From Blasia pusilla (Eukaryota): a stretch of 64,000 nt of DNA. The notes beneath the pieces were generated by a model that saw nothing but the letters and a program-made list of their open reading frames with translations, was not told the origin of the DNA and searched no databases. Both the position numbers and the translations under genes were made by a program. Location: positions 12,214,001 through 12,278,000 of the forward strand of contig CM114271.1 in NCBI GenBank assembly GCA_050084515.1. The letters are read 5' to 3'. This document shows positions 20,261-62,790 of the stretch, piece after piece; positions within the stretch are counted from its first letter, which is position 1, and each line of letters begins with the position of its first letter.

Positions 20261-20329
20261 ATGGATCAGGAGTGGCACTAGGGGGATGAGCAAGAGAGAA
20301 AATTTCAGATGCTCAAGGATAGATTGACG

Positions 20330-21099: not shown

Positions 21100-22160
21100 T
21101 TGTAGAGAGCATGTTTGGTGCATCATGCCTACGAGGAGTTGGGTCATTTTGGAGTGAAGGGGACGTACAACTTGCGCCAGATTCAGTATTGGTGGCGAGG
21201 CATGCAGACTGACGTTCAACAGTTTGTTTCCAGATGCATGGTGTGTGATCAAGTGTGAGCATCGTTCAATGCTCCCACTCCATAGTTGCATCCACTTCCG
21301 TTCATGGGCTTAGGTTATAGATGGAGTTTAGATTTTGCAGCACCTTTACCTTTGACGAGGCGCCATAGTCATTATGTGTTGGTGATGGTCGAGCACTTCT
21401 CGAAATGGATAGAGTTGGTTGCATTGTCTGACAAAGCGAGTGAGAGAGTAGCATATGCCTCCTAAGATCGAGTGTTGAGACATTACGGCGCACCAACTAA
21501 GGTGTTGACAGACCAGGGTATAGAGTTTTGTTGGGAGTTTCAGGCCTTGTGTGATCAGACACTGATTGACCACCACACTACTTCGCGAGATCATCCTGAG
21601 GCGGATGGACTAGCAGAGCGGGTTGTGTAGACGGTGAAGAGAGGACTACGCAAGTATGACTTTCAGAGAGTTCACCTAGGAGATTGGGACCTTTAGTTGC
21701 CGTGGTTGGCGATGGGATACACATTCAGCAGGCAGGCATCCTTAACGTCTTTCTCACCGTACTTGTTGCTTTATGGCTGAGAGCCAAATTTACGTGCGGC
21801 CATTCCTCGAGATGTTGATGAGGTTTTGAACCTTGATGACCCAGATGTTTGGATGCGAGCATGTTCTCAGAGGGCTGAGCTATTTTGGAGAGTGATGCCC
21901 ATGGCGTTTAAGAACTTGGCGATTGCGCAATATCGGGATACGTTGAGGTATGTGACTATTTGGGGAGGTGGTTATCGACCTCCTATCCCAAGGTTTCATC
22001 AGGGAGATTATGTCTACTTGCAGCAGAAGGCGCTCACAACATTGGATGTGACTACAGGCCGTACCATCTTGAGAGTGTGTGAGGTTTTGCCATCCACTGT
22101 TCTCTTATTGGAGGGACGCGATGGTATGGTTTGGAAGGACCATGTGCCTAACTGTACGTC
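21100..22160 (+). pseudogene. DDE integrase (HHCC zinc-binding region plus rve core), copy 1
   Basis: LGHFG...WWRGM...CMVC, WSLDF, VLTDQGIEF, HPEADGLAERVV*TVK, FSPYLLLYG. Confidence 0.92.
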
Positions 22161-22227
22161 ATGTCATCTTCCGAACATTGATGGTACATTTGATCCAAGC
22201 TTAGCAATAGTTCTTTTAGGCTTGCGG

Positions 22228-22368
22228 TGTATGTTGTGTGGTTTCGTCCGTGGCGCAGCCACTATGCTAGTCTGTGATGGGTGTTCGAGAGGATGGCATA
22301 TGGCATGTTTGACGCCACCTCTCACTAGGGTTCCTCAGGGACGATGGATGTGTCCCAAATGTACATAG
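22228..22368 (+). pseudogene. C-terminal PHD finger (C4HC3) of the polyprotein, copy 1
   Basis: CMLCGFVRGAATMLVCDGCSRGWHMACLTPPLTRVPQGRWMCPKCT* has all eight zinc ligands and the conserved W. Confidence 0.92.
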
Positions 22369-22547
22369 AGTAGGTAGTTCTACATTCCGACTTGTGTCTG
22401 TGATATGGATGACAAGAAGGCGACTAACGACGGGACCACATGAGCACCTGACCTGCTTGCTCTTAGCGTCCGAGAGATGTATGTCATAGTAGGTAGGGAT
22501 AGATGGCTATTTGGAGTTAGAGGGACCTAATCACCAACTAGGGGTCA

Positions 22548-22675
22548 ATTGGAGATATTTTGGTACTTCTTGTCTCATTGTTTGGATGCCATGAGTTAGC
22601 ATGGGATCGTGCGTGTTTGTGTTTGTGTTCGGTGACAACGATGTATGTTGTGTAACGATGTGTATGCGCACGACA
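22548..22675 (+). repeat. Terminal repeat B of copy 1 (128 bp)
   Basis: Matches the reverse complements of 47422-47549 and 48065-48192. Preceded by actagggg; ends in CA. Confidence 0.9.
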
Positions 22676-24250: not shown

Positions 24251-24720
24251 TGTCACATCTTAGTTAGTCAACAAAAAAGTTATATTTTGTTGACAACATA
24301 AAGAGGATCAATGGGCTTGTTAGGCTTTACTTCATCACAAGGTGTTGGATGAGGTTGGAGTTAGCTCCATTGCATTAAGATTTTCGTTTAGGAAAATCCC
24401 TTTTTCGCTATTTTAGGCTAAATTATCTATTGATCAAGTCAACAATCACATGGTGACTTGTGTGTGCACATTACTGATTTTGGGCTATTTTTGGCTTTTG
24501 AATCTAGGGGTATATACGATGGGAGAGATGGCTTTCATAAGCCATCTAAGGTTTTTCATATAAAGTCTTTGGAGGATTTCAAGATTTAGGTTTGCAAGGG
24601 CTTGCGTCCGGATTCCCTCATGGCAAAGGATGGATGTGGCTTGATATGTCAATGTATATTCATGAGCAGATTTGGCTGGGAATTAGTACTTATCAGCAAC
24701 AGTTGGTTAACCTTTAATTG
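24251..24720 (+). mobile_element. 5'-terminal A repeat of a third related subfamily (truncated)
   Basis: Begins TGtcacatc. Shares ggatgaggttgg, gggctatttttggct, gggtata, agatggcttt...aagccatct and gattccctcat...ggatgtgg.ttgatatg blocks with 9562-10035. Confidence 0.7.
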
Positions 24721-42760: not shown

Positions 42761-43687
42761 GACAACATGCAATAGGATCTCAAGTCCATACTTGAATGAA
42801 CATGGCAGGTCATAATCTGTGTGGTTCCCTGGGTGTAGATCTAAACATACTAACCGTAACGTCCAATATCCAAATGGAACAAGCCAATCCCTTTTATGAA
42901 GTTAAATACACTATTAGGAAGAAACCCAAGCGTCAGAGGCCAAGTATTACGGCCTTTGACGTTCTTCCTTCTCCTTGTCCCTCCACCATTTATCTACTTT
43001 TGTAAGATGGGACTAAAGGAGAGAAGTTTACAATACGCACAAAGTAGATAAGTAGACTAGTGACCTAAGTCCTCGAAAACCACGGCTAGCCAGCTGCAAA
43101 ACGCATTCGGAACTAAAACTTATTAAGGCGGTTGCACGCCTCAGCATTGTAATTGTAGTGTGATAACCTCACTCGAATCAGCCGAATGCTCTATAGTTCC
43201 CAATAACATTGCTCGCCTCTACGGGGACTACTTAAGAATGAGTACTTTAGATCCAGTTCCAAAAATGCAAACTAATTGAACTAGAGTTCCAATTAGCAAT
43301 TAGAACTCTAGTTCCAAAAGAACAAGTTGGCCTTGGTCGGTCGCGAGTACCTAAGAATCGGAACTATAGATCTAGTTAAAAAAATGATAACTGAATCCAA
43401 TTCCCTAAACCATTTTCGAAACTCTACATCTAGTTCAAGAAATGAGAATCAGTGTCAATCGGAAGTCTAGTTGCAAACCCTAAACCCTAAACACTGACAT
43501 GCAAAGCAGTTCTGGAAATGATAGAACAACCAAAATACCTTCACGAAGGACACTCAAGAATCAAGCTCGGGATGACATCTCCCACCTTGCAATAAAAGAT
43601 ATACATCCAATTGCATCTGAATTATGGATCTAGGTTTAGTTTGATAGCTCTAAATCCAAAAATGAACGGATACCTAAACCAAGGCTT

Positions 43688-46135
43688 TCAGAACTCGAGT
43701 TCCCAAATCAAATCGCTGGCCTCTTTGCGTGCTACTTCATAATGGGAACTATAGATCCAATTCTCAAAATGACAAGGAAGATCAATGGGAACTCAAGTTC
43801 CAATTCTTGACACAAAAATTGAGCCCGAACAAGGGCGTTCGGAGCTGTAGTTCCCAAAATTATCGTGCGCCTCCTTCTCGGCTTCCTCATCATCGAAATT
43901 ATAGATCTAGTTCTTGAAATGAGAAGGAGGATCAATCACAACTCAGGTTCCGGTTCCAAAGACGAGAAGTGAATCCAAACGGGGCATTTGGAAGTGTAGT
44001 TCCCAAAAATGATCGCCGGCCTCCATCTCGGTTTCCTCACCATCAAAACTCTGGATCCAATTCTCAAAATGAGGAGGAGGATCAATCAGAACTCATGTTC
44101 CAGTTCCACACACGAGAGTCCCTACCTAAACAAGGGCTTTTGGAACTAGAGTTCCCAAATCATATTGCGGACCTCCTTCCCCTTTAGATCACGATTGGAA
44201 CTCTAGACCCACTTCTCGAAATGAGAAGGAAGATCAATCGACACTCAAGTTCCCGTTCTAGAGATGAGAGTTGAGCCCAAATAGGAGCATTTGAAGCTAT
44301 GGCTCCCAAATGGGATCGTGGGCCTCTTTCCTGACTTCCTCACCATCTGAACTATAGATCCAATTCTTGAAAGAGAAGGAGGATGAATCCAAACTCAAGT
44401 TCCAATTCCAAAGATGACAACAGAGTCCAAATGGGAGCTTTCGGAATTTTAGTTCCTAAATGAGATTATGGGCCTCCTTCCTGGCTTCCTCACCATTGGA
44501 ACTATAGATCCAGTTCTTGAAATGAGAAGGAGGATCAATCAAAACATAGGTTCCAGTTCTAGAGACGAGAATCCCCCCCTAAACAAGGCCTTTTGGTACT
44601 ATAGTTCCTAAATCAAACCGCCGGCCTTTTTCTTTGCTACCTCACCATCAGAACTCTAGATCTAATTCTCGAAAGAAGAAAGAGGATCAAAAAGAACTCA
44701 AGGTCCGGTTCCAGAGATGAGAACTGAGTCTGAACGGGGGACATTTGCAACTATAACTCGTGGGCCTCCTTCCCAGCTTCCTCACCATCAAAACTCTAGA
44801 TCTAGTTCTTGAAATGAGAACAAGGATCAACGGGAACTCAGATTCCAGTTCCAGAGTTGACAACTGAGTTTGAACCGGAGCTTTCGGAACTGTAGTTCCC
44901 AAATGAGATCACGGGTCACCTTCCCGGCTTCCTCACCATCGGAACTCTAGATCCAATTCTAGAAATGATTAGGAGGATCAATCAGAACTCATGTTCTGGT
45001 TCCAAAGATGAGAGTCCTCCCCTAAACAAGGGCTTTTGGAACTGTAGTTCCCAAATTGGATCGTCGGCCTCTTTCCTTGCTACCTCACCATCAAAACTCT
45101 AGATCTAGTTCTCAAAATGAGAAGGGGGATCAAACAAAACTCAAGTTCAGGCTCCAGAGATGAGAACTAAGCTCAAACGAGAGCGTTCAAAGTTGTAGTT
45201 CTCGAATGGGATTGCGGGCCTCTTTAATTTCTCGGCTTCCTCACCATCCAAACAAGAGATTCAATTCTTGAAATAAGAAGGAGGATCAATCTGAACTCAG
45301 ATTCCGGTTCTAGAGAAAAGAGTCCCTCCCTAAAGTAGGGCTTTTGGAACTGTAGTTCCCCAAATCAAATCGACAGCCAGTTTCCTTGCCACCTCACCAT
45401 CGGAACTCTAGATCCAATTCTTGAAATGAGAAGGAGGAAAAATCGGAATTCAAGTTCCGATTCCGGAGACAAGCGTCCCCCCCTAAACGAGGGATTTCAA
45501 AATTGTAGTTCCCAAATCAAATCTCCGGCCTCTTTCCTTGCTATCTCACCATCAGAACTCTAGATCCAATTCTCAAGCTGAAAAGGAGGATCAAACGGAA
45601 TAGAGGTTGCAGTTCCAGAGATGAGAACTGAGCCCAAACGGGAGTGTTCAAAGCTATAGTTCTCAAATGGGATAGTGGGCCTCTTTCCCGGCTTCCTCAC
45701 CATTGGAACAAGAGATTCAATTCTTGAAATGAGAAGGAGGATCAATCTAAACTCAGGTTCTGTTTTTTGATAGAAGAACTGAGTGCGAATAGGAGCGTTC
45801 AAAGCCGTAGTCCCCGAATGGGATCGCGGGCTTCTTTCCCGGCTTTCTTACTATCGGAACAAGAGATTCAATTCTCAAAATGAGAAGGAGGATCAATCTG
45901 AACTCAAGTTCTTGTTCTAGAGATGAGAGTCCATCCCAAAACGAGGGCCTTTGGAATTGTAGTTCCCAAATAAGAAGGTGGGCCTCCTTCTTGGCATCCT
46001 CACCATCAGAAATCTAGATCGTGTTCTTGAAATGAGAAGGAGGATCAATCGAAACTCAGGTTCCAATTCCAAAGACGAGAACTGAGCCCGAACGGGGACA
46101 TTCGGAATTGTAGTTCCTAAGTGAGATCAAGGGCC
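43688..46135. repeat. ~151-bp tandem array, left part (~16 units)
   Basis: Anchor cctcaccatc recurs at 44780, 44931, 45083 and 45239. The core gaaatgagaaggaggatcaatc is conserved. Confidence 0.93.
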
Positions 46136-47421
46136 TATGGTACCCACATTTTTGAATTTTTGATAGGTAGACCAATTTTGTAGAGAATTGTAGAGAAGTC
46201 TTCACGAATTGAAGAGTGAAGGCTTAAGACTCAAAGTAAAGAAGAATGCTTTTCAAAAATTGTGTTGAAGCACATTGAGTCATGAAAGTGTGGAATGGGG
46301 TGAACTCTGCTGAAGGGTCAAGAAAGAAGTAAGAGTACGAGGCGCAGATGCTGCGTAGCGAAGACTGCACTATAGGAAGATGGTTAAGACTATTAAATGA
46401 AGACCTTTTAAGGACTTCTTCTTTGCAACATAAGTTCAAAGAGAGTCTTCGTGCAAAGATTGTGAACAAAGAACAAAGACCAAAGAGTAAAGACTAAGAA
46501 AGCAAAGAAGCGGAAGAAAGAAGAAGAAGGAATCAGCGAGAGACATCACAAAGTGATAATAGGTATGAAGACTAGGAAGAGGAAGAGGAATGATGTTTTT
46601 GAAGAAAAGGGATGAAAGGAAGGTCGCAAGGAGAACTTCTTTTCGGTGGCCGCAACAGTAGTATAGTCTGTCGAAGATAGGATAGGAGTGCTTTGCACCA
46701 AGCGAAGACTATAGATAGTGGACCATCGCAGCAATTTCGGAAGTTAGAAATGGAAGGGCGCCACGGATTCAGATGGAAGTAGAAGAGACCTCAACCGACT
46801 TAAGGGAAATGAAGGGTTGGAAGATCTGAACCGTTAGATTGTAAATTAGAAATCTAGAAGAAAGTAGAAAGATCAACCACGAATTGTAAAGAAGACTATT
46901 TAAAGAGTAAAGCAGAAGAGCGAGGGATCATTCCCTTGTGTCTTGAGTTTCAAGCACTCTTGTTGATCATGTGAGTAGTTTCTTTAGGGATGGTCCGAGT
47001 CAAAGAGTCTTGTACACTCTGAAGCTTGTAATACTTTCTAGTTTCCTCCACTCTTTGATGTAGTAGAAGTATCTTCGCTCATTCTTTCTGATGTGTTGAG
47101 TTGAGAGTCGATCTTATTGGGCTGCAGTAGGGATGAGAGTTGAGTCTATGATTTCAGATGTCTAGAGGATAGTCAAGAAAGGTGTATGAAATTTGTTAGA
47201 CATTGAGTAACGTGCCGTGACAGATTCAATTCTTAAAGTAGTATGAGCGGTAGTCTTCTTCATCTCTCTTCGAGGTCCTTGTTTGAACTTTGGTATCCAA
47301 GATTCGCATGACTCTTTCGCTGTACTTGAGAAGAGTTTTTTTTTTAGGGAAGAAACCCATTTTAATCTTTTGTACTATTGAAGACTTAGTTGTTGAAGCT
47401 CTTGGCTTACTTAGTGAAGAA

Positions 47422-47549
47422 TGTCGTACGCATACACATCGCTACACAACATACATCGCTATCATCGAACACACACACAAACACGCACGATCCCATGCTA
47501 ACTCATGGCATCCAAACAACGAGACAAGAAGTACTTAAATATCTCCAAT
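47422..47549 (-). repeat. Repeat B2 (128 bp), element 3' terminus
   Basis: Direct repeat of 48065-48192. Confidence 0.92.
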
Positions 47550-48062
47550 AAAGTAAGATCCAATCTCTCTCTACACCATCTCACACCCTAGCTCTCAAAG
47601 GTGTGCACTCTCTCTCATGTCAAACCAAACCCATTGTCCTAATGAGAGGCTTTGGTTATACTCACAAGGCAAGGGACCACAACTCCACTGCCTCATGCCA
47701 AGAGGTTCAACAAAGACAGAATGAGCTCTAAAGCGCTCTCTCCTTAAGGTATATCCCTCCCCTCTTCCAAGCTCTCTCCATGGTAACCTATTCTCCCAAG
47801 TCACCTCCTTGGCTCTTGACCTGATGTAGGAGGTCAAGGGCCACTTACTAAAAATTTAAAGTCGATCATATACTCAAAATGGTACTTATCTAAAATAGTA
47901 AGTTCCTCAATATGGCTCCAAATGAGCCGAAACGAAGGGGAAACCTGCTCCATCAGGTTTCCCGAGGCCTCAACAGATCATCCTCAACCTACTAAGCTTG
48001 TCCTCCACTACTCACAAAGGCACTCTACTAGATCTCACAGATCTATCCTAAAAGACGTGATA
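47550..48062 (-). repeat. Repeat A2 (~513 bp)
   Basis: Direct repeat of 60608-61120, from aaagtaagatccaatctctctc to ctatcctaaaagacgtga. Confidence 0.92.
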
Positions 48063-48064
48063 TT

Positions 48065-48192
48065 TTTTGTGCGCATACACATCGCTACACAACATATATC
48101 GCTATTACCGAACACACACACAAACACGCACGATCTGATGCTAACTCATGGCATCCAAACAACGAGACAAGAAGTACTAAAATATCTCCAAT
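48065..48192 (-). repeat. Repeat B1 (128 bp)
   Basis: Direct repeat of 47422-47549. Preceded in element orientation by a G-run (ctaggggggtg). Confidence 0.92.
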
Positions 48193-48378
48193 CACCCCCC
48201 TAGCTCGTGGTTAGGTCCCTCTAACTCCATATAGCCCTCTATCCCTACCTACCACGACATACATCTCTAGGACCCTAAGAGCAGAAAGGCCGGGTGCTCA
48301 TGTGCCCCCATCGTTAGTCGCCTTCCTCTCATCCATGTCATAGAAAAAGTCGGAATCGAAAACTACCTAGAATCTCTT

Positions 48379-51300
48379 CTATGTACATCTGGGACACATC
48401 CATTGTCCTCGAGGAACCCAAGTGAGAGGTGGCGTTAGACATGCCATATGCCAATCTCTCGAAAATCCATCACATACTAGCATCGTGGCCGTACCACGAG
48501 CAACGCCACACAACATACAACACAAGCCTGCAAAAACTATTGGTTAGCTCGAATCAACTGTACCATCAATGTTGGGAAGCTGACATGGCGCACAATTATG
48601 CACATGGTCCTTCCATACCATACCATCGCGTCCCTCCATCAAGAGAACACCGGATGGCAAAACGTCACGCACTCTCAAGATAGTGCGCCCTGCAGTCACA
48701 TCCAACGTCGTCGGTGCCGTCTGCCGCAAGTAGACATAATCTTCTTGATGAAACCTCCGGATAGTTGGTCGATAACCACCACCCCGAATAGTCGCATACC
48801 TCAACGTATCCCGATGCTACCCAATCGCCAAGTTCTCGAACGCCATGGGCATCACTCTCCAAAACAACTCAGCCCTCTAAGAACATACTCGCATCCATAT
48901 ATCTAGGTCATCAAGGTCCAACACTTCACCAGCATCTCGACGAATGGCCGCAGGTAAATCTAGCTCTCAACCATAAAGTAGCAAGTATGGTGAAAAAGAC
49001 GTTAAGGATGCTTGCTTGTTGAATCTGTATCCCATTACCAACCACGGCAATTGCAGGTCCCAATCTCCTAGGTGACCTCTTTGCAAGCCATACTTGTGTA
49101 AACCCCTCTTCACCGTCTGCACAACTCTCTCCGCTTATCCATCTACCTCGGGATGATCTCGCAAAGTCGTGCGGTGGTCGATCAACGCCTGATCACACAA
49201 GGCCTTGAACTCACCGTGAAACTCGGTACCCTGGTCTGTTAACACCTCAGTTGGTGCACCATATTGACTCAACACTCTGTCAAGGAAGGTATAAGCTACT
49301 CCCTCACTTGCTTTGTCAAGCAATGCAACCAACTCGATCCACTTTGAGAAGTGCTTGACCATCACCAACACATAACGACTATGACGCTCCGTCAAAGGCA
49401 AAGGTCTTGCAAAATCCAAACTCCATCTATATCCTAAGCCCATGATCGGTAATGGATGCAAGTATGGAGTCAGAGCATTGAATGATGCTCAAACCCAATC
49501 ACACACCATGCACCTGGCAACAAACTGCGGAACGTCAGTCTGCATGCCTCACCACCAATACTGAATCAGGAGCAAGCTATACGTCCGCTTCACCCCAAAG
49601 TGACCCAACTCCTTGTGGGCATGTTGTACTCGTCATGCTCTTTGCAAAGGATGCGGCAGTACGCGTACTCTACCATCCTCCCAAACCCTCAAAACATATG
49701 TCCCCTCCCAACGGAACCGTATGGCCCGTTGTAGGATCCGATCCTGCTCTCTAGCACCCACGATGCTCGCAACGCTGCTAGTACGAAGGAACTCCAAGAC
49801 TTCTCCATCATCATGAATATCTCGGCCACATGTCGTCTCCTCAATGGCCTTGGGATCCAAGGACTCTCCACTAGACCTTGCCATCAAATTCTCCACACTC
49901 TGGCTCTCCATAGCCAACATGCCTAAATAGGCTAACGCGTGCCATCCAGGCACTAACTCCTCATCACTCTCTCCATGCCATTGAGCTCCAATCGCATCTC
50001 GTTGACTCGAGCATGGGTTATGACTCAACCCATCTGCATCCTGGTTGAGCATCCTAGGTCTATGTACCACTTGCAAATCATACTCTTCCAACAACAGAGC
50101 CCATCTCGCAAGCTTCCCTGTAAGCTTCTCGGACTCCATTAACCACTTCAGTGGTTGATGATTAGTGATGATGGTAAAGGGGTTGCCGAATATGTAACAC
50201 CTGAAATGCATGACAGCCAACATTGCAGCCAAGCACTCACCCTCATACGAGCTATACTTCGCCTCTACAGCGTTGTTTAAGCGGCTAGCATAAGCCACCA
50301 CAAACTCTCTACCCTCATCATCATGCTCGATGAGCAGCGCTCCAAGCCCCAACATGCTCCAATCTGTGTGCAACTGCAAAGGATGCCCCTGATCAGTCTC
50401 CTCAAGATGGGCGCGGATGTCAACTTGTCCTTGAGCAACTGAAATGCTCGCTCTTGCTCATCCCCTGAGTGCCACTCATGATCCACCTTGGTCAACAAGA
50501 TTAACGGCTTCGCAATGGAACTGAATCCCTTGACGTACCGCCGATAGAAGTTTTCCAATCCCATGAATGCACAAACACGGCTCATATCTGTAGGGTGTGG
50601 AATGCGTGAGATAGCCTCTATCTTTGTCAGCTAAACACCAAGGCCCCGTGGGTATATTGTATGACCCAAGTACTCAATCTAGTCATAGAAGAACTTGCAC
50701 TTGCCTGGATGTAGCTTCAGCCCATGTAATTGCAATAGTCGAAACACCTCCTCAAGATGTCGCTCATGCTCCTCAACCGACAGCCCATGTAATTGCAATC
50801 GTCGAAACACCTCCTCTAGATGTCGCTCATGCTCCTCATCCGTGGCGCTAAAGACTATGATGTCATAAATATAATACCTAGCAAAATCCAGACCAGCCAA
50901 GATCCTATCCATGATCTTCCGAAACTCAGCGGGGGCGTTCTTTAACCCAAATAGTAAGAACCGCCACTGGTACAAACAACCTTCCCGTGAGGATCGATGC
51001 CCCAAAATGTCGTCTTCTGTCTGTCCTCCAATCTGATAGGCAACTGATGGTATTTGGCTCGCAAATCCAATGAACTGAAGACCTTTACGTGATAAATCGC
51101 ATCAAAGATCTCCTCAGGGGTGGGCATGGCATACCTATCGGACTTAGTCTACCAATTGATAGGTCGGTAATCCCCACACATCCGCCTATCCGTCCAGTTG
51201 CCATGCTCATCCTTCTTGGTGGGCATGATAGTGGCAGATGCATACTCCCCATGCGACATCTCCATTAGTCCTCCTCCGACCAAGTCCTGGCTCCTACTCT

Positions 51301-52117
51301 GAATCAGAGCCCTTTCCATATCACTATACGTGTAGAATCATCGGAAGATCGGCGTATCACTCGACAACTCAATGTGGATCCCCGATCCCTTTAGCGTACT
51401 CAGATCCTCTATGCTAAAAGAAAAGCAGCTCCTATAACTCTTGAGGAACTGATGTTTAGGCGCCGGCGTTTCCGGCGCCGCTCTCTTCCTGTCAAATTAG
51501 GGCCCATATCTGGCTCCCAAGTCTCCATCGTGACTACAGTAGGACTCTCCAGCGCAGGTATCGGTGGTTGCTATGGTGCAACCCCGTCTCAAACAACAAC
51601 ACTCGGCCGCTCTCCTACAGCCAACTGCAAACTCTGATCTCCTCCACATGCAGTGCTCGGAACCACGCTCGATACTGTGGCTATTATCTCTTGGCGTACC
51701 TGCAAAACATCCCAAGAAGTCCAAAGATGTCTCTCCCGATCTCCCCAGGTGTGTAGATCTCCTCGGGTCTCGCCCCCACCCACCGCCTCCATTGTCTTGG
51801 TAGGCATGGGGCTCACCAACGCAACCGCTATGATCTCTCGCGATCTCATACGACGCTGCTCAGCCACTCCCAAGCTAAGGATGCATGTCAAGCAGTTCAA
51901 GTCCATCGCTTGATCCAAGACACGGCGTCATGATGCCTCTGACATTGACGGTACTACCGTCAATCTTGTGGGAAATCCCATCACTCGCTCTCTCTCGTCG
52001 GTGTTGGGCTCCACCAACCGCTGAAACTGGTCATCCCAAACGAAGCTAGGACTGGCCTCTTTGTATGCATAGGAAGTGGGAAAACTCACAAACGTGGGCA
52101 AGGCTGCCCGCGGCTTG
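48379..52117 (-). pseudogene. Copy 2 pol, 3' part: DNMT C-terminus, RT, RNase H, integrase, PHD finger
   Basis: ERERVMGFP and DQAMDLN; VFSSLDLRAKYHQL, FGLKNAP, YIYDI; LHTDWS, NQDADGLS; WSLDF, LTDQGTEF; WMCPRCT* ending at 48379. Confidence 0.93.
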
Positions 52118-52122
52118 CCTAC

Positions 52123-55100
52123 TATTGAAGATTGAGTTATAGTCAAGCTCATGAGACATCTGAACTGCTACATTTGGCACTCACAAGAAGTAGGGAAGCT
52201 TAATCTTGGTTAGTCGATAACCACGATTATCTTGACTAGGATTTGTTAATCACACTTAGGCTAACTCGAGACTAGGGTTAAGGATAGGGTTAGGATTGCT
52301 TGTATATATCCTATATAATTGAGAAGAGGACCAGCCTCCACTCATTCTCTCATTGCAAATTTTGTTCTCCATGGTGGTGTGTGTGTGTGATATGAGAACA
52401 GGAGCCTCAGTAGAAGAGGGTTATCAAGTGAAGTTTAACGTAAATAGTTGTTTCATTGAAACAATGGATAACCACACTACGATAGCAAAAGGAACTAGAT
52501 CTGGCAGAATGTTCAAATTAGATGTTTCTATGCCAAAAATTCAAACAACAATGTATGGTCAAACCGGCCAACAAGTCACAGATCTAAATGTGTGGCATAA
52601 AAGAATTGGACATATGAATCTTCAAAAATTACAGAGGCTTTCATCATCTAATATAGTAATAAGACTCCCTAAATTAGTGAGTCTTGCTATGTTAGAGGTA
52701 TGTCCTGCTTGCCAATTTGGAAAACAAGCTAGATTTCCTTTTCCAAAGCGAGATAGAAGAGCATCCAAGATATTGGAGTTGATCCACAATGATGTGTGGA
52801 CAACATCACAACAGAGCCTTAGTGGTTGCCAATACTTTGTTTCATTTATTGATGACTTCTCTAGGTATATATATAGGTATACTTTTTGAAAGCCAAGTCA
52901 GGAAATTCTCAGTGTTCCTCGAAGTCTTCACATGAAGTAAACCTGATTTTTCCTTCTTGAAAGTATTTGGCTGTATCTGTTATGCTCATGTTCCTTCTGA
53001 GAGACGACAAAAATTAGACCCCAAGTCTCAAAGATGTATCTTCATTGGCTATGCTGATGAAACTAAGGGGTATAAGTGCTACATTCCATCCTCTAGGCAG
53101 CTTATTATTAGTCGCGATGTTGTCTTTGATGAGCTAAAGTCATGGTATGCTCCATCTGAGCCTATTCCACCTCTAAACTTGTCTGTTGAGGAGGAGAATA
53201 TGACTCGAAACCAACAGACATTGTCTTCAACTTCCCCAAGTACTAGTGTAGGATTAGGAGAGGTCCTAGATTCATCGGTTCAATCTGTGAGTCCATGGAT
53301 GGGAAGAGTACATATTCAGTCTATTGACACTAGTTGGAGCTTCAGTCAAGTGTCAAACGCATCTATCTCTGAACAACAACTTTGTAGATCAAGTAGAGTT
53401 ATACATCCAGTTCATAGATTCATAAATTAAGGTTTCCTTGCGACATATTATGCATATATGATGACTACCCTTCAACAGCAAGAGCCGAGTTGTTTTGAAG
53501 AAGCTATGAGTAAATTCGAATGGATTGAAGCTATGGAGGAAGAGCTTGCTGCATTAAGACATCAACAAACATGGGAGCTGGTTGATATACCTTCCGGTAA
53601 GAAAGCTATTGGTTGCAAATGAGTTTACAAAATCAAGTGCAATCAAGATGGTACAATTAATAGATACAAAGCGAGATTGGTTGCTAAGGGCTATGCACAA
53701 CAATACGGTATCGATTATGAGGAAACATTTAGCCATGTTGCAAAGATGGTGACTACAAGAACATTGGTTGCAATTATAGTAAATAAGAAGTGGAGATTAC
53801 ATCACATGGACGTCAAGAATGCCTTCTTGAATGGAGATCTATGTGAGGAGATATTTATGACTCAACCACTTGGATACGAGCATCCCAAGTTTTCATTTCG
53901 CGTATGCAGGTTGAAGAAAGCTCTATACAGGCTCAAACAAGCTCCAAGAGCTTCGTATGGCAAGATTACATACGTCCTACAAGAGTTAGGTTTTAGGGTC
54001 TGTGATTCTGACTCCTTGTTATATGTCTTGAGAGGACAAGATCATACAGTTCTCATTGTGTTGTATGTTGATGATCTCTTGATTAGTGGGAGTATTGAAG
54101 AAATGGTACAACAAGTCAAGCTTAAGTTACAAGCAAAATTTGATATGAAGGACTTGAGAGAACTCAAGTACTTCCTTGGTATTGAGTTTATCAAGGTTGG
54201 AGAGAGCATGTGGTTACTACAACAACAATATGCTCTTCATATGCTTTCAAAATATGGTATGACGGCTTGTAAGCCAATCTCTATTCCGTTGGACTAGAGC
54301 GTGAAGCTAAGAGTGGATGAAGGAGAGCTGCTTGCAGATTCTGATATGTACAGACGCATGGTTGGAAGTTTGATCTATCTAACTATAACTAGACCAGATT
54401 TGAGCTATGTTGTTGGCCTAGTGAGCCAGTTTATGCAAGCACCTCGAAAACCTCACCTTGATGCTGTGAGGAGGATTATGTGGTATGTGAAATTCTCTAT
54501 TCAATTCGGGCCTCAATTTGAACCTTCTCCGAGTTTTCAATTACAGGGATTCACAAATGCTGATTGGGCAGTAAGAGTGTCTGATCGACACTCCACATTT
54601 GGTTATTCATTTACTTTGGGAAGCGCAGCTATAAGTTGGGCTTCACAGAAGCAACCTACAGTTGCTTTATCTTCAACAGAGGTTGAGTACAGAAGAGTAA
54701 CCAATGCAACATGTGAGGCGGTGTGGCTTCATTGATTACTTGATGAGATTGGTGTTAGTATCTTAGAACATAGTGTAATATATGCAGACAATATTAGTAG
54801 CATCAAGCTAATATTGCTAATAACCCTGTGTTTCATGCTCGTACAAAGCATGTTGAGATGCACTATCATTTTATTATAGAGAAAGTGCTTGTAGGAGAAA
54901 TTGATCTTGTGTATATAGGTACAGATCAAAAAATTGCTGACATCTTTACAAAGGCATTGTCTAGAGATAAGTTTGAGATGTTTAGAAAGGATTTAGGCGT
55001 TAGAGATATCGATATGAGCTTGAGAGGGAGTATTAAAGATCGAGTTACAGTTAAGCTCATGAGACACCTGAACTGCTACATTTGGCACTCACACAAAGTA

Positions 55101-55342
55101 GGGAAGCTTAATCTTGGTTAGTCAGTTAAGCATGATTATCTTAACTAGGGTTAGTTAATCACAGTTAGGCTAACTTGAGACTATGGTTAAGGATAGGGTT
55201 AGGGTTGCTTGTACATACCCTATATAATTGAGAAGAGGACCAGCCTCCACTCATTCTCTTATTGCAAATTTCTTTCTCCATGGTGGTGTGTGTGTGTGAG
55301 AGCCGTTTTCCACCAATTATGCTTGTTTAGCAGTTTTCCACA
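52123..55342 (+). mobile_element. Ty1/copia LTR retrotransposon, internally deleted, inserted in the DNMT domain of copy 2
   Basis: Exact 5-bp TSD cctac (52118-52122, 55343-55347). 5' LTR 52123-~52390 (truncated) and 3' LTR 55031-55342 ending CA. PPT tgagagggag at 55021-55030. Confidence 0.96.
52400..55020 (+). pseudogene. Copia pol remnant (GAG-pre-integrase, partial integrase, RT, RNase H)
   Basis: WHKRIGH, CPACQFGKQ, FIDDFSR, KLDPKS..CIFIGY, KARLVAKG, MDVKNAFLNG, LYVDDL, TRPDL, VALSSTEVEY, HARTKHVE, ADIFTKAL. gag, protease and the integrase core are deleted. Confidence 0.95.
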
Positions 55343-55347
55343 CCTAC

Positions 55348-58300
55348 CCTGTTGACCACAGTCAATGATGGTCGATCATTGTGCCTCACTGCCTGTGATC
55401 GACGACGTGGATCCAGTATGGAATCCACTAACAAATGGGAGGGGCGCTCCACTCTCGCATACGCCCTCTATAACACCGCATGGGGCACCAAGTTGGTCCA
55501 CCATAGATGCGGGCGATGGGCTCTAGAACCTACACTCGCCGCATCCAAGAACACTGTTGGTCCGATCCACGCACGCACTTGATGAGTACTCGTCATCATC
55601 CGTGACCTGGAGTCTCCTAAGATCGGTATATTCTCCAAAATGTAGGCTGGAGAACGAGACTGGTGCTCCTACAACTGCCGTAAGACCCTCAACATCTCCC
55701 AAAAAAACCTAGACCGAGTGTCAGCCAACCCGCTGCCTCGTCCAACACTCGATTGGCTCTAACATGGCCAACCGGAAATGACCAAATAAATGGTCCCTAC
55801 CCGCTCTAAGTTCTGCGCCCCCAACAACAAAATATCCCTCGATAGGGAACTCTAGTATCCATATACCGCGGACGTAGATAATAAGTCGAGAAAACATAGG
55901 CATAACTACGCCACATGTTGTAGTGAGACGCGCCTCGGAACATCATCACTCTCCACATACAAGTGCTGCTGCACTCGCACTCCTTCTTGCAAAACAACAG
56001 CTAACCCGGTGCTAATCCCTCCAAAGAGATCTAACACTCGAATACCCTCCTCCGAGATACACCACAAAATGGGTGTGATATCCAAGGGTGTCATCATTGC
56101 ACTCCCTGCTACCTCGGGTTCCTCAGACTCGTCACGCTCCGGTGCAGACGCCTTGCTCCACGCGGTCTGCACCTACTCATCTGCCAATCGTCGAAGCTCC
56201 TCACTCGAGCCCCACAGCGGCACCTCTCCTCCACGGAATGATGCGGCTACCATAACACTCCTCTCCATAGAAATTTCAAGAACGGGAGTATCCTATGCAT
56301 GGACATGTCTCTCAATCAAATCACTAGGCCAAGTGATTGCTAAATGCTGCTAAGGTTGCCATCTCTCCTCGTCGTTGCTCGATCACTACACTTGTAAATC
56401 AAACATGTAATGAGCTAAGGCGCCCATCACCTGACTGCTATCCTAGTCTATAGGATGCGGACTCCTCCCAATAATCTAGGGCAAACCCCATCGGGTATAA
56501 CAGTGCTCCACCAACCAAGACGTTGTAGGACTCTGCATCAGTCACTATCGCCTTGGCTCACACCACGGACTCATCTGTAGGATGTCCCAGACAAATCCTC
56601 ACTACGACCTCCTGTCAGGTGATATAATGTGTAGTACTCACTCCACCCAAGGATATCGTGAATGGACAATGCTCCACATCGGCTCTTGTCAAGCCCAATC
56701 CTCTGAATGACGCTTTTCCCAACATCAAGGGTTGCGCTCCTGAATCCAACAAGACGCGTTGCGGACTAAAAGCTCTACCTCCGGGACTCACCAACTAGAA
56801 GATTTCTCCTTGGTTATCTAGCAACACAACACCAGGAGAAGCCATGGCACGCTCTATCGCAGGTCTAGCGGGCATCTCCGCCATCCTAGCAGCCGCAGCC
56901 TGCCAAGAATCTGACGTGGACGGCCCAAGCATCCGCTCCAAGGGCAGGTCCATCACCTCCTCTGCAATCATCTCTGAACGTGATGCAAGAACTCCAACTC
57001 CACGCTCACATAGCGTAGCGGCGAGCAAAAAAGCCTCGGCGGGCGTACCTCCCAACGTCATAACATCGGAAGCAAAAAATTAAGCAGCGTGGTACACAAC
57101 GGTGGCCGCCCCCAAGAACGTCCTCAACACATGCCCGTGCAGAGCATCAGCAACATGAGTCGTCGCACTCGCTTCTCCCATCGTCCTCCGTGCCTGCACA
57201 CCAACAACATCACCAACTCTCCAAGAACTCTGATCAAGACCCATCAATGGGGTCCTCATCGCCTCGGATAGCATGAAAGACTGAGGAAGCCTATTCTGTT
57301 TCCTCGCTTCCCCTCGCTATGGATCCAACTGTGCGGCTGTTCCATGCGTCACAACTCTGGCTGCCTCCATCTGGGCAAGCCCGCACATCCAACTAGGATC
57401 CTCCATATCTCTGGCTGCTCCATATGATGTCGATGCCACGGATCCGGAATCGGGTAATCTCAATGCCATAGCGACAATCTACTCCTGTAGCTTATGTATT
57501 TGAGCATCCATCTCAGCCTCACGTCCAGCGTCTCCCTCGGTGCGTCTAGATGGTAGGACTCTACCTCCTCCATGGGCAGCTCCACCATTATGTCGGGCAA
57601 CTCCAGCTCCTCATCCCCCAATGGGACCACTTGGTGCACGATCTCTAGGTCCACCTGGACCGGCTACTCGCTTTGGTGCCCTCTCTGGCCCTTAGTCCAG
57701 AGGTAACTCAGGATATAAATTGAAACACCTGGCGCGTGTATGACCATACCTCTAACAATAGTCACACTGATAACCTCCGGGTGCATCACCATCTCCTCCT
57801 CGATGCTGAGGCACATATCCATGACCCTGACGAGTGCAATCGCGTTGATGATTGGTTCCACCACATGACCAACAAGTAATTGTAGGGGGTTCTTTCCTGA
57901 GCCGCATATGAAGGCGCGGGTCTCTGTGGCACGGCCTCTAGGTATCCTCCCTGAGCTCGTGGTGCCACGGTTGACCTATCACGGAGTCCACGTTGCTGCA
58001 CAAGTTGTGCAAACAATCGCAACTGCTCTCGTCCAGAACCCATGGTGACCTACGCTCTCCTCCGCCATGTTGCACTCAATATTCTTGGCGGTCCTAAAAA
58101 CATCTCTTAACGTAGGGGAGGTGTCCATAAGAAGCACCCCCTCCCCCACCCGTGTCCACAGGGTCCGATCCAGCATCGCGTACCATGACTGGATAGCCTG
58201 AGCCTCTGTCACCCCTTGAGTGATGTTGATCAACCAACACAAGCGAGTGTAAGCCTCAAGCAAACTCTCACCTGGGCGCCTCTAGAAGTCTTGGATGCTT

Positions 58301-58997
58301 TGCAACTTCTCCGTCCGTACCCTCTAGTAGCTCGCCCTCAACTCAGCAAAGAACTCAACCATGGGGTTGAACCTGGGACGAACCCGACTAGACGGTGCAA
58401 CTACTCCAATACGAGTGACCCCTCCTAAAACATCACTAGTGGAAGAGGAAGTAGCCTCTTCTAACTCCTCCTACTCATCTGGAAACGGCTCCGTCCATGA
58501 CACATAGTGTAAGTCATAGTAGAGTCCCTATGCCTCAATCTCTTGGGCATATCTGTGGGAGAACTCATGGTAATCGTCCATGGATGCCCCCTCTAAATGC
58601 TAGAACATACCGTTCCATGCTGTAAACGGGTTGAACTCTCTAGAGTTCCTAGCCCGCTATGAGTCACACCAATTTCTAAACTCCGCAATGAAGTCGTGTA
58701 GCTCTATGGTGCCTACAACACCCGAAAACCTACGCGGTCCTCTACTTCGGTCATCCATCTCGTACGCCCAACTGGTAGGACCACTCAATGCGTACAGTGG
58801 ATCACTAACACACTCCTCTACACGCTCCTCCTTGTCTGAAGACGACACAAAAGGAGATCAAGATGGTCTCTCACGTGGAGACCCTCGAAACCTCGCACCA
58901 CTCCGGGTAAACCCTCCAGCGCTACTCTCAAGTCCACTACCTCGCCTCTCAAAATCCTGAAAGGACGCCGTGATGGCCCTCGTGCCCCTCTCACATG
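55348..58997 (-). pseudogene. Copy 2 polyprotein, 5' part: gag, zinc knuckles, protease, DNMT motifs I-VIII
   Basis: GTIELHDFIAEFRNWCDS; RVLLDSGAQP (~56730-56760); RVLDLFGGISTG, YVESD, ISGWPC* (GWPC* at 55759-55773), YILENI, HRPHLWWTN. Confidence 0.9.
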
Positions 58998-60607
58998 ATC
59001 ACTCTCAACCTCGCGACTAATCCCTCAATCACTCATCCCAAACATGCAGCACTCGATCTACACTCTCCCTCCTCGAGAAGTGTAACGTGCGGCAACAAGC
59101 GGCATGGTGCGGCAAATCGACCATGCTATCATCTCATCGACAACCTACCCTCAACTCCGGAAATCCCACACAGGTCTATGTCCCCTAAACCACATACATA
59201 AATGATGCTCTCAGCATCCACACAACCCAATATCTCCAAATAAACTACCCAAATCCCATAATTCCTCACGCGTGGAGGGTAAAGGACCAAAATGGGTAAC
59301 CTGAACACATGTCAATGTCGCTCCTCAGCATCAGCAAATCTCAACCCCAACTCGGTCATGGAGACAACTCCTCCAATGAGCAAGTCATACTCCTTCCATT
59401 CTGATGCTACTCAAAACTCCTCGATGGACAATGCGGTCCCAATGGAACGGTGCGGCGTTGCAGGCGGTATAGAACGGCTACAAACGGCACGGCCCTCGAT
59501 GGTGGGATGCGGCACTCGGTGGCATACCCTCCTCAATCAACAATAAACCCACACTCTGCTCCACAATGACGATGCGGCTCCGCGATCGAGATGGTGAGGT
59601 GCGGCCACGATTGGCACGGCGCGGAAATCGGCGGCGCATTGCGGCTACAGGCTTCACGACACGGTACTAGATCGTCGTCGAGCGGCTACCAATCACAACA
59701 TAGTAGCATGAAATCAAAACTCAAACACCATAACCAGAGGTCATCTACCATCACTAGTTGATGGCAAAACTTCAATGACGGTGGCGGCCAAACCAAAGTA
59801 CGTGGTGGCGGCGCAAGTCAGAGAATCAACGGTGGTCGTGGATGACCCTCCACTTTGTAATGGCGGCAATGGCAACCAAAGGGTGGACAACGGCCGAATG
59901 CGGCTCTGGGCAAGATTGGGCAACGGCAACGGCCGACAATGGACAATGGACGGTGGCCGGTGGACGGTGAACCATTGATGGTGGCGATGGACCATTGACG
60001 GTGACAGTTGACTGTTGACAATGATGGTGACTATGACGGCGATAGCCTCCGCCGGCATGGCGGCTGGTTTAGGGTTTGAACAATTTAACCCTAAAAATTG
60101 CCTAGCAATGGAAGTTTTGCAAGATTGACCATAACTTTTTACTCGCAACTCCAAATGCACATTGTTTGTTGTACAATGTGCACAACTTTACGATCTATGA
60201 CCGTATCAAAAAATATTTGGAATTGAACATTCCAGTAAAAATTGACAGGGATTGTTGTAAAGCCCAATGTCTCTTTCTCCTACACAAAATTTGGCAGCGC
60301 GGTTCTCCCAACAAAATTGTAAAACCTATAAAAATACATATCAGCAAGCTACATGGTGCTCCTGAGGGCACCAGAATGGGGCAACCCGCCCCCATAATCA
60401 ATCCCTATCAAAAATTGGGCAGCGCTTCCGCGCGCCACTCTTCCACACGAAAAATCACCAAATGCAAAGAACAATCAAAGTAGCCCTTGCTCTGGTGAGC
60501 ACTCCCATGAGCCACTAAATGGGGAACATATTCCCCAACCTGCAAAAATAGTGAGTGACTAGCGAGCTCCCCCATGAAGCTCTCTCACTCTATCATTCTC
60601 TCTTTGT

Positions 60608-61120
60608 AAAGTAAGATCCAATCTCTCTCTATACCATCTCACACCATAGCTCTCAAAGGTGTGCACTCTCTCTCATGTCAAACCAAACCCACTCTCCTAA
60701 TGAGAGGCCTGGGTTACACTTACAAGGCAAGGGACCATAGCTTCGCCGCCTCATGCCAAGAGGTTCAACAAAGAGAGACTGAGCTCTCAAACTCTCTCTC
60801 CTTGAGGTATACCCTTCCCTTCTCCCAAGCTCTCTCCATGGTAACCTATTCTCCCAAGTCACCTCCTTGGCTCTTGACCTGATGTAGGAGGTCAAGGGCC
60901 ACTTTCTAAAAATATAAAGTCGATCATATACTTAAAACGGTACTTACCTAAAATAATAAATTCCTCAATATGGCTCCAAATGAGCCGAAACAAAGGGAAA
61001 ACTTGCTCTCTCACGTTTCCTGGAGCCTCAGCACGTCATCCTTGACCTATTGATCATGTCCTCCACTACTCACAAAGGCGCTCTACTAGATCTCACCGAT
61101 CTATCCTAAAAGACGTGACA
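60608..61120 (-). repeat. Repeat A1 of copy 2, element 5' terminus
   Basis: Direct repeat of 47550-48062; homologous to 12984-13512. Confidence 0.92.
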
Positions 61121-61243
61121 AGAAGGAGTTATTCTTTGTATTTCTTATAAAACCTCTCTTTTCTCAGGAAATATTGTTCTCTTGCGAACAAACTTAATAT
61201 TTTGCGATTAAGAGAGTACCTTTTCCTTGATTTGTACATTCCA

Positions 61244-62790
61244 AGGCCTCTTTTCCGGCTTCCCCACCATCGGAACTAAAGATCCAGTTTAAGAAATGAG
61301 AAGGAGGATCAATCGCTACTCAAGTTCCAAACTGAGCCCGAACGAGAGCATTCATAGTTGTAGTTCCCAAATGGGATCGCGGTCCTCTTTCATGACTTCC
61401 TCACCATCAAAAATAAGGATCCATTTCTTGAAATGAGAAGGAGGATCAATCAGAACTCAGGTTCTTGCTCAAGACACAAGAGCCCTCCCTTAACGAGGGC
61501 TTTTGAAACTCTAGTTCCCAAATCAAATCGCTGGCCTCCTTGTCGGCTACCTCACCATCAAAAGTAATGATTCAATTCTTGAAATGAGAAGGAGGATCAA
61601 TAAGAACTCAGGTTCCTATTCTAGACATGAGAGTCCCTCCCAAAATGAGGGCTTTCTGAACTTGAGTTCCCAAATCTTATCGCTGACCTCTTTCCTTGCT
61701 ACCTCACCATCGGAAGTCTATATTCAGTTCTCAAAATGAGAAGGAGGATCAATCGGAACTCAGGTTCTAGTTCCTGACACAAAAACTAAGCTTGAACCCG
61801 GGCGCTCAAAGCTATAGTTATCAAATAAGATCGCAAACCTCCTTCTTGGCTTCCTCACCATCAAAACTAGAGATCCTGTTCTTGTAATGAAAAGGAGGAT
61901 CAATCAAAACTTATATTCCGTCCGAACAAGAGCTTTCAGAACTATAGTTCCAAAATGAGATCATGACCCTCATTCCCGACTTCCTCACCATCGGAACTAG
62001 AGATCCACTTCTCAAAATGAGAAGGAGGATCAATCAGAACTCAGGTTTCGGTTCTAGAGACGAGAATTGAGTCCGAACCGGGGCATTCGGAACTGTAGCT
62101 CCAAAATGAGATCAAGGGCCTCGTTCCCAGCTTCCTCACCATCGAAATTAGAGATCCAATTCTCAAAATGAGAAGGAGGATCAATCAGAACTTAGGTTCT
62201 GGTTCCAAATATGAGAACTGAGTCTGAACGGGGGGCATTCAAAACTATAGTTTCCAAATAAGATTGCGGGCCTCCTTTCCAACATCCTCACCATTAGAAC
62301 TCTGGATCCAGTTCTCCAAATGAGAAGGAGGATCAATCGGAACTCAAGTTTCTATTCCTAACATGATAACTGAGCCCGAACGGGTGCGTTTGGAGCTCTA
62401 GTTCCCAAATAAGATTGCGGGACTCCTTCTCGGCTTCCTCGCCGTCAGAACTAGAGATCCATTCTCAAAATTATAAAGAGGATCAATCGAAACTCACATT
62501 CCGGTTCCATATACAAGAACAAACTGTAGCTCCCAAAAATAATCGCGGGGCCTCTTTCCCAGCTTCCTCACCATCGGAACTATAGATCTAGTTCTCGAAA
62601 TGAGAAGGAGGATCAATCAAAACTCAGGTTTCAGTTCCTGACACGAAAACTAAACCTGAATGGAGGCATTGGGAGACCTCACCACCGGAACTAGAGACCC
62701 AACTCTTGAAATGAGAAGGAGGATCAACCGGAACTGAGGTTCTGGTCCCAAAAATGAGAACAAAGTTTCTAAATCAAATCGCTGGAACTG
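61244..62790. repeat. ~151-bp tandem array, right part (~10 units)
   Basis: Anchor cctcacca at 61983, 62134 and 62286. Same consensus and orientation as 43688-46135. Confidence 0.93.

Follow-up and report, generated by a model that had tools for sequence, protein, structure and literature searches.

Split terminal repeats and a possible internal integration site in a Gypsy-DNMT3 retroelement of a liverwort-type genome

How does an element with the integrase of the Ty3/gypsy group come to end in split direct repeats of the order A1-body-B1-A2-B2? The question is raised by one element, here called E1, within a 64,000-nucleotide stretch of Blasia pusilla DNA (assembly GCA_050084515.1, contig CM114271.1, positions 12,214,001 to 12,278,000), the whole of which is called the window and from whose first letter all coordinates are counted. 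The answer that we hold to be probable is that the lineage of E1, Gypsy-DNMT3, reverse-transcribes in the ordinary long terminal repeat (LTR) way but integrates through sites that lie inside its LTR. The ends of the integrated copies, the priming signals and the joints between the repeats bear on this in turn.

Repeat layout and integrated ends

E1 is a decayed element of the minus strand, running from 61120 to 47422 in the order A1 (513 nucleotides, nt), body, B1 (128 nt), 2 nt, A2 and B2. When the window is scanned for repeats and compared with itself by BLAST, A1 (60608-61120) and A2 (47550-48062) are 90.2% alike over 511 nt, and B1 (48065-48192) and B2 (47422-47549) are 94.4% alike over 124 nt; the four blocks had been placed exactly by an earlier, sequence-only reading of this DNA. 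The sense strand starts TGTCACG and stops ACGACA, so that the termini are TG..CA, and TTCT (agaa on the plus strand) directly flanks the element on both sides, at 61121-61124 and 47418-47421. That reading had also claimed the TG..CA ends and a 4-base-pair (bp) duplication adjoining B2 and not A2, and the terminal sequence contexts agree with it. The features of the ends and borders, taken from the 5' side, are as follows.

61121-61124, minus strand: target-site duplication, 5' side, TTCT in the sense direction, from end-context reading and duplication comparison
60608-61120, minus strand: A1, the 5' terminal repeat, beginning TGTCACG and containing the putative promoter and predicted RNA start
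60807-60811, minus strand: TATA-like box within GGTATACC, some 30 nt before the RNA start as predicted, of putative function
60768-60778, minus strand: self-primer word TCTCTCTTTGT, A position 343-353, complement of the putative primer-binding site and predicted first bases of the RNA
60598-60608, minus strand: putative primer-binding site ACAAAGAGAGA, abutting the A1 end, with 16 nt complementary in a sister copy, E2
48195-48201, minus strand: polypurine tract AGGGGGG, 2-3 nt upstream of B1, at an equivalent position in 35 of 36 relatives
48065-48192, minus strand: B1, internal copy of the 3' terminal repeat
48063-48064, minus strand: 2-nt spacer from B1 end to A2 start, AA in E1 and AC, AT, GC or GT in relatives
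47550-48062, minus strand: A2, internal copy of A, beginning TATCACG
47422-47549, minus strand: B2, the 3' terminal repeat, joined directly to the A2 end, final bases ACGACA
47418-47421, minus strand: target-site duplication, 3' side, TTCT in the sense direction, from end-context reading and duplication comparison

Two other elements of the window bear on the layout.

12984-22675, plus strand: sister copy E2, with A (12984 to about 13511), a body of DNA methyltransferase (DNMT), reverse transcriptase (RT), RNase H, integrase and PHD finger, and a single B (22548-22675), flanked by TTTC and TTTT
9420-10175, plus strand: remnant of a second, diverged family, with B1 (9420-9559), spacer AC, A2 (9562-10035) and B2 (10036-10175)

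E2 is about 84% identical to E1 across the whole body and by self-BLAST is of the form A-body-B only, without A2-B2, its flanks being a near-duplication (TTTC/TTTT). In the remnant B1 and B2 are 91% alike over 138 nt and the last bases, GCGCACGACA, match the E1 end; the likeness of its B1-A2-B2 end to that of E1, as read before from sequence alone, stands, including the 2-nt spacer and the GCGCACGACA terminus.

Relatives were taken from metagenome contigs scanned with an alignment of 17 relatives, which gave 289 confirmed stretches, with 80 loci kept; 60 of the 80 reach the C-terminus of pol and form 47 clusters at 97% identity. A-like and B-like pieces were mapped on all 80 loci and the classification was made by reading the map. 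The order pol-B-A-B is found in 18 clusters, with the final B doubtful in one (L039), and a single B followed by unrelated sequence in 18 elements (17 clusters plus L006), while the remaining 12 clusters are uninformative, six having too little downstream sequence, L002 ending inside A2, L003, L012 and L031 having no detectable A or B in common with the reference A and B, and L038 and L080 being deleted forms. A conventional pair of equal LTRs occurs in none of the 80 loci (36 typed relatives), nor in E1 or E2. The integrated form thus has A only at its 5' end and either B-A-B or B at its 3' end; a B preceding the upstream A is seen in none of 21 elements (19 from the metagenomes, E1 and E2), and the form A-B-A-body-B was sought and found in none of these 21 with an upstream A. 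Both types of junction, B-A and A-B, occur in DNA contigs of two further sequencing runs, which together with the many independent assemblies excludes an assembly artefact. The earlier claim that the layout is inherited and is not a local rearrangement is therefore well founded, since a second family of the window shares it, as do 18 independent clusters from the metagenomes, and the findings named in advance as contrary to it, conventional LTR pairs, a duplication at A2 or an assembly artefact, turned up neither in the relatives nor in the end contexts nor in the independent contigs.

Both ends could be read in 17 elements (15 loci together with E1 and E2), and in each the 4-mer ahead of T-N-TCA[CT] was compared with the one that follows the final ACA. 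B contains an internal near-repeat that misleads automatic end rules, and so the ends were checked against their sequence contexts, with L005 taken from a separate run. The 4-bp duplication is exact in nine of the 17 (L005, L020, L030, L052, L006, L010, L013, L072 and E1) and matches at three of the four bases in six (L024, L049, L068, L058, L079 and E2). Chance is excluded by a shifted-offset control, in which exact 4-mers were found in 2 of 340 comparisons as against 9 of 17 at the true ends, and an exact 5-bp match at the ends is found in none of the 17. The duplication adjoins the last B and not A2, in single-B and B-A-B copies alike. Duplications of 4 or 5 bp are given as typical of plant lineages in the accessible part of the survey PMC6317226, and the TG..CA ends with a duplication of 4-5 bp are as expected of Ty3/gypsy elements. 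The second base of the element (T-N-TCA) is variable, mostly G, with A in A1 of L005 and in many internal A2 copies, C in L006 and T in E2; the G-to-A change at CTG would fit deamination of a CHG-methylated cytosine in the opposite strand of element starts.

The junction of B with A follows the pattern [CT][AG][CT]NACA + 2 nt + TNTCA[CT]G in 16 of the 18 B-A-B clusters by pattern search and in the other two by eye. Between CACGACA and T[GA]TCATG the spacer of the 16 pattern-matched clusters is AC in eight, AT in four and GC in four; it is GT in L002, AC in the window remnant and AA in E1. The arms of the junction are imperfect inverted repeats ending in CA and TG, making a near palindrome CACGACA-NN-TGTCATG, and integrated copies start and stop exactly at these CA-NN-TG arms. 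In combination, ends at a near palindrome and a 4-bp duplication are characteristic of DDE integrases that act on CA-3' ends. In its sequence the CA-NN-TG site resembles a retroviral LTR-LTR junction, but one that would lie inside each LTR.

Lineage, priming signals and transcripts

The coding remains of E1 lie in two stretches.

55339-57106, minus strand: N-terminal pol region (protease region and DNMT3-like methylase), degenerate, collinear with residues 35-615 of Marchantia P0013
48382-52128, minus strand: rest of the DNMT, RT (50679-51101), RNase H (49633-50457), rve integrase (49135-49488) and PHD finger region, with several stops and frameshifts

Open reading frames (ORFs) of E1 and E2, taken one by one, match RVT_1, RT_RNaseH, rve and PHD in Pfam, and DNA_methylase is matched weakly in E2 (E 1e-4) and more clearly in the relatives L002 (E 1.8e-13) and L020 (E 2e-9). 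In a large protein collection the nearest proteins are those of the liverworts Calypogeia, Riccia and Marchantia (55-63% identity), with more distant homologues in Klebsormidium nitens and a green alga, and many of the homologues combine PF00145 (DNA_methylase) with RT, RNase H, rve and PHD. By tblastn E1 and E2 are collinear with the liverwort and Klebsormidium polyproteins through protease region, DNMT, RT, RNase H, integrase and PHD, and nothing else in the window has homology to these polyproteins; the Klebsormidium protein KFL_009030040 (P0043) is 39% identical over the RNase H ORF and 30-46% along pol, its residues 41-1567 matching E1 and E2. An intact metagenome relative, L002, has two ORFs with one in-frame stop between them, ORF1 (1369 amino acids) with an aspartyl protease, which falls short of the Pfam cut-off, and the DNMT, and ORF2 (1047 amino acids) with RT, RNase H, H2C2, rve and PHD; the remaining 13 of its 15 scanned ORFs of at least 90 amino acids match no family. 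The moss-type relative L020 has a domain order like that of L002 by Pfam. A single in-frame stop, at 5083-5085 of L002 and 4661-4663 of L001, divides a gag-protease-DNMT ORF from the RT-RNase H-integrase-PHD ORF and could be a programmed read-through or a lone mutation.

The closest solved structures are Ty3 Gag-Pol (7q5b, E 4e-98) and the Ty3 RT, with the foamy-virus integrase for the integrase part. D684, D744 and E779 are invariant in the alignment of 17 relatives, giving the D,D35E spacing. The order protease, RT, RNase H, integrase is that of Ty3/gypsy pol, the RT being nearest to the Ty3 type, and a DDE integrase with Integrase_H2C2 is present as in that group, in window copies that are themselves degenerate. 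The sequence-only reading had combined split direct repeats with an rve integrase and seen no recombinase ORF, and on both counts it was right: rve is present in E1, and Phage_integrase, the tyrosine recombinase family, has no Pfam match in the larger ORFs of the window, in the 15 L002 ORFs or in L020. E1 is, to judge by its sequence, an old, dead copy of the streptophyte Ty3/gypsy lineage Gypsy-DNMT3, with protease, DNMT3-like methylase, RT, RNase H, DDE integrase and PHD finger.

The two borders not used by the integrated ends carry what appear to be priming signals. A run of at least four G within 15 nt of the B1 start is present in 35 of the 36 relatives and in E1, the B sequences being otherwise unalike between families despite this common run. 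At the other border the 11-16 bases abutting the A1 end are exactly complementary to a word whose place inside A is fixed, at about position 343 in the liverwort family and about 160 in the moss families. Between the A1-end region and that site 12 of 21 elements have an exact complement of at least 10 nt, for a chance expectation that we estimate at about 0.005 per element, and three distinct word pairs are found in three families, with a compensatory change in L072.

Moss family M1: word inside A AGTTTTTCTAGAATT, complement at A1 end AATTCTAGAAAAACT
L072 (compensatory change): word inside A AGTTTTTTTAGAATT, complement at A1 end AATTCTAAAAAAACT
Family M2: word inside A AGTTCTTTGAGT, complement at A1 end ACTCAAAGAACT
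E2: word inside A CTCATTCTCTCTTTGT, complement at A1 end ACAAAGAGAGAATGAG
E1: 11 nt of the E2 word pair

Energies of whole duplexes give weak z-scores (-5.8 to +1.0) because A is long, and the test to rely on is that of exact words. All six elements inspected have a TATA box about 30 nt upstream of the self-primer word, as TATAAAAG, TATAAAG or, in the window, GGTATACC. Complementarity of the region after A1 to B was found in none of eight loci. These signals together lead us to infer an RNA start within A, a primer-binding site after A1 and initiation of the plus strand at B1. A primer-binding site after the unique 5' part of the LTR (U5) and a polypurine tract before its unique 3' part (U3), as Ty3/gypsy elements have, would be in place by position, with a function predicted from the letters. 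By the standard strand-transfer scheme a self-primer site at the A1 end and a polypurine tract at B1 mean that the LTR made by reverse transcription would be B-NN-A, and not A or A-B.

At the A2/B2 joint the A end, equivalent to the U5 end, meets the base that directly follows the polypurine tract, equivalent to the U3 start. In family M1 seven joints are precise, three lack two bases at an AT overlap, one lacks 8-9 bases and one is unclear; in family M2 four are precise apart from substitutions and one has 17 extra nt, "precise" in copies without A1 being relative to the usual A end of the family. The variants are scattered on the M1 tree, which is star-like and of low support, with single-B copies interspersed among B-A-B copies, a scatter that would fit a joint made anew at each insertion. 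The joint is accordingly read as formed per insertion, with single-B copies probably arising repeatedly from B-A-B masters.

Transcripts are consistent with this arrangement of signals. Two RNA-seq runs, with the same organism label as the best-matching DNA runs, were mapped to E1 at a likeness of at least 85%, and gave 6193 and 6555 matching reads, nearly all 85-95% alike to E1 and therefore from related copies and not from the dead E1. First mates are some ten- to a hundredfold more frequent on the plus than on the minus strand, so that the RNA comes from the minus, that is the sense, strand if the libraries are of the usual stranded kind. Depth is near zero across a Ty1/copia fragment nested in E1, and falls from 115-210 to 20-33 in the final bin (A2 end and B2). 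Reads spanning the junction of B end with A start (61120 or 61121 to 47422) number 7+19 and 8+31; among the joints listed, that of A end with B start is seen in DNA contigs only. These data fit an RNA running from A1 through B1 into A2 and stopping before B2. The B block of the expressed copies starts CGAGTTGTGGTACAC (loose ends at 48195), and in this resembles that of metagenome family M2 and differs from that of E1, which indicates that the active family differs from E1 and is younger.

Routes to the integrated form

A route from such an RNA to the integrated copies can be set out as follows. Reverse transcription would yield complementary DNA (cDNA) of the form [B-NN-A]-body-[B-NN-A], and the integrase would cut the internal CA-NN-TG site of the LTR. 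A provirus A-body-B-NN-A/B would require a DNA substrate with the U5 end of one LTR fused to the U3 start of its partner, which could be a 2-LTR circle arising by end joining or a head-to-tail junction due to template switching by RT. Only A-body-B-A-B would keep a 3' copy of the repeated region R, and hence be able to replicate. An A-body-B copy without the 3' R should be dead, and so the single-B copies, E2 and half of the relatives among them, would be dead by-products, arising by cutting of both internal sites of the linear cDNA, by cutting of a 1-LTR circle or by later deletion between B1 and B2. In retroviruses the 2-LTR circle is a dead end. We put forward only tentatively, and with less confidence than the internal integration site as such, the wider proposition that a gypsy lineage reaching from charophyte algae to liverworts and mosses has its integrase attachment site inside the LTR, that its replication-competent proviruses are circularly permuted and that a 2-LTR circle or its equivalent is an obligatory productive intermediate; were it true, split repeats like those of the tyrosine-recombinase retroelements would have been reached convergently by way of an integrase.

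Several observations sit badly with integration through an internal LTR site. The most serious is that a 2-LTR circle would present two equivalent sites, so that A-B-A-body-B should be as frequent as the form observed, and it is absent from the 21 elements; the asymmetry would be explained by a junction made by RT at the right end only, and no priming signals for such a junction were found. The circular or head-to-tail intermediate is itself inferred, no extrachromosomal DNA having been observed, and E1 and E2 are too decayed to demonstrate function themselves. The duplication fails in two of the 17 elements, L047 and L017. At the right end of L016 and L017 four extra bases (ACTC) separate the terminal CACGACA from TAGC, which is the 4-mer of the 5' flank, and it looks as if the cut or its repair had shifted there. 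In the RNA, depth upstream of the start predicted in A1 is not zero (35-63), where reads from the 3' copy of A would map too, and a small cluster of fragment ends (7 molecules) lies at 47738, 18 nt before the predicted R.

The missing A-B-A-body-B form is what would be expected if RT itself made a linear A-body-B-A-B cDNA, by unusual priming or template switches, and the integrase then used true DNA ends with no circle. Retroviral integrases trim two extra bases, to which the 2-nt spacer could correspond, and those A2/B2 joints with a 2-nt overlap (L030, L051 and L077) fit template switching at microhomology as well as they fit end joining. Such a cDNA would however have to be primed where the signals are not: the bases before the A start (CACGACA-AC) are no polypurine tract, no primer-binding complement follows B (the eight loci had no complement to B), the G-run and the self-primer site stand at the other two boundaries, and no strand-transfer path to the product could be derived. 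We regard this alternative as unlikely, if still one to be reckoned with.

Replication in the manner of DIRS, PAT and Ngaro elements, in which the ends are rebuilt with the internal B1-A2 junction as bridge or template and either a tyrosine recombinase acts in trans or the integrase acts on a DIRS-type circle, seems decidedly improbable. Elements of the DIRS order of the PAT/Ngaro type usually integrate without target duplication, whereas the E1 lineage has a 4-bp one; the duplication and TG..CA ends are seen in 15 of the 17 elements, the D,D35E residues are invariant and none of the Pfam scans gave a Phage_integrase match. Further, a bridge model would have no use for priming signals placed exactly at the B start (the polypurine tract) and at the A end (the putative primer-binding site). 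What speaks for it is the layout, since A1-body-B1-A2-B2 defines the PAT and Ngaro elements in the accessible text of PMC4157794, and the repeats of a Klebsormidium relative are described, in the part of PMC5890265 available, as those of a DIRS element.

That E1 is an ordinary element with an LTR of B-A, truncated, rearranged or mis-assembled so that its split repeats mean nothing, is hardly credible even for a region that is a graveyard of transposons and satellites with nested insertions, and is refuted by the census, the end duplications and the independent DNA contigs, in that the boundaries recur in three elements of the window and 36 of the metagenomes from many assemblies, the duplication is found at the A start and just after the last B, no B stands before A1 in any of 21 elements, and both junction types are found in the two other runs.

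Neighbourhood, known systems and significance

The sequence-only reading had placed E1 and the remnant correctly, but had overlooked the nearly full-length E2 with its TTTC/TTTT near-duplication, the DNMT and PHD domains and the nested Ty1/copia fragment.

52118-55342, plus strand: nested, internally deleted Ty1/copia fragment (gag_pre-integrs, SH3_retrovirus, RVT_2), foreign to E1 and interrupting its DNMT region, ends approximate

This fragment, on the strand opposite to E1, is an insertion of roughly 3.2 kb relative to E2, and its empty site is visible in reads and contigs of other copies (joints 52114/52117 to 55343). Its own direct repeats, at 52123-52390 and 55031-55299, are about 270 bp long, and there is apparently a 5-bp duplication, CCTAC. 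E1 has a tandem duplication of 63 bp within its RT region (50718-50842, minus strand; units 95% alike), and RNA reads of related copies skip 84 bases there (joint 50755 to 50840).

Upstream of the remnant at 9420-10175 neither an A1 nor pol homology was found, only faint tblastx traces at 8115-8315 and 9212-9289, and the region is filled by CACTA and hAT fragments. The stretch 24278-24673 (plus strand), 1.6 kb past the E2 end, shows 65% likeness to the remnant family's A block (9593-9998) and may be the 5' end of another decayed element of that family. DNA-transposon fragments of CACTA type (Transposase_21, DUF4218) and hAT type (DUF659) lie at 1602-2282 (plus), 37784-38530 (minus) and 5816-6244 (minus). 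Arrays of a 151-bp satellite, with units some 72-77% alike, flank E1 at 43680-46136 and 61245-62660, and satellite on both sides suggests that its surroundings are pericentromeric or otherwise heterochromatic.

The reading made from sequence alone had cautioned that split repeats might have been noted in other integrase-bearing elements, and rightly, because the layout is in print for a homologue, KnitGypsy-Dnmt3 of Klebsormidium, for which the legend of Fig. 4c gives a DIRS-like repeat arrangement with Gypsy domains (de Mendoza et al. 2018, PMC5890265, accessible parts). The main text of that paper, so far as accessible, has nothing on duplication, end sequences, priming sites or mechanism of KnitGypsy-Dnmt3 (PMC5890265). 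Like that element the E1 lineage has a DNMT3-like C5 methylase inside gypsy pol and repeats in the order A-coding-B-A-B; unlike it, E1 has as its host a liverwort-like land plant, by its best matches to Calypogeia, Riccia and Marchantia. The name Gypsy-DNMT3 is used for streptophyte elements, with the repeats not discussed, in a preprint (bioRxiv 10.64898/2026.05.21.726589), and no further paper with the name KnitGypsy-Dnmt3 appeared in the literature searched. A search for split direct repeats with integrase returned by title only recombinase elements, and wider searches brought up no second report of such repeats in an element with an integrase, subscription journals, Repbase and Dfam being outside all of them.

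The split direct repeats A1-body-B1-A2-B2 are held in common with PAT, TOC, Kangaroo, Ngaro and VIPER (PMC4157794, accessible text), elements that have a tyrosine recombinase and no DDE integrase, unlike the E1 lineage with its rve, TG..CA ends and 4-bp duplication and with no recombinase found. As to priming, the E1 lineage is like Tf1/sushi and Tcn1 in that its putative primer-binding site, next to U5, complements the element's own 5' region and not a tRNA, self-priming being described for Tf1/Sushi and predicted for Tcn1 by Neumann et al. 2019 (PMC6317226), and differs from them in its split repeats and PHD finger, in contrast to two complete LTRs and a chromodomain. The accessible text of that survey of plant LTR elements does not list the Gypsy-DNMT3 lineage, and "methyltransferase" and "PHD" have 0 occurrences in it (PMC6317226). 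Cleavage by retroviral integrase of the palindromic LTR-LTR junction of 2-LTR circles is reported for foamy virus (PMC1180852) and HIV-1 (PMC1905944) in the accessible portions of these papers, and the cut proposed here, by a DDE integrase at an internal CA..TG palindrome of circular DNA, would be of the same kind. It would differ in that the retroviral palindrome is made from joined LTR tips and is a side path, whereas that of the E1 lineage, with its spacer of 2 nt, lies inside each LTR and would serve the productive route.

That a gypsy element with an integrase can have this layout is thus already known, and E1 is a liverwort-type member. New, as far as our literature searches reach, are the distribution of the lineage across bryophytes, the duplication of 4 bp, the internal near palindrome with its 2-nt spacer, the putative self-priming site and polypurine tract at the other two boundaries, and the permuted-provirus model.

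Split repeats have been regarded as a hallmark of recombinase retroelements, and the Gypsy-DNMT3 lineage has them with a DDE integrase and a target duplication. For annotation this means that an entire lineage, common in bryophytes, will be overlooked or given wrong boundaries by tools which expect two equal LTRs. For mechanism, the disagreement between priming sites and integrated ends on where the LTR begins and stops offers a natural test of circular or head-to-tail LTR DNA as a productive integration substrate, and the experiment is feasible because the family is transcribed in the source organism. Lastly, the DNA methyltransferase and the PHD finger make these elements relevant to the interaction of transposons with the chromatin of their hosts.

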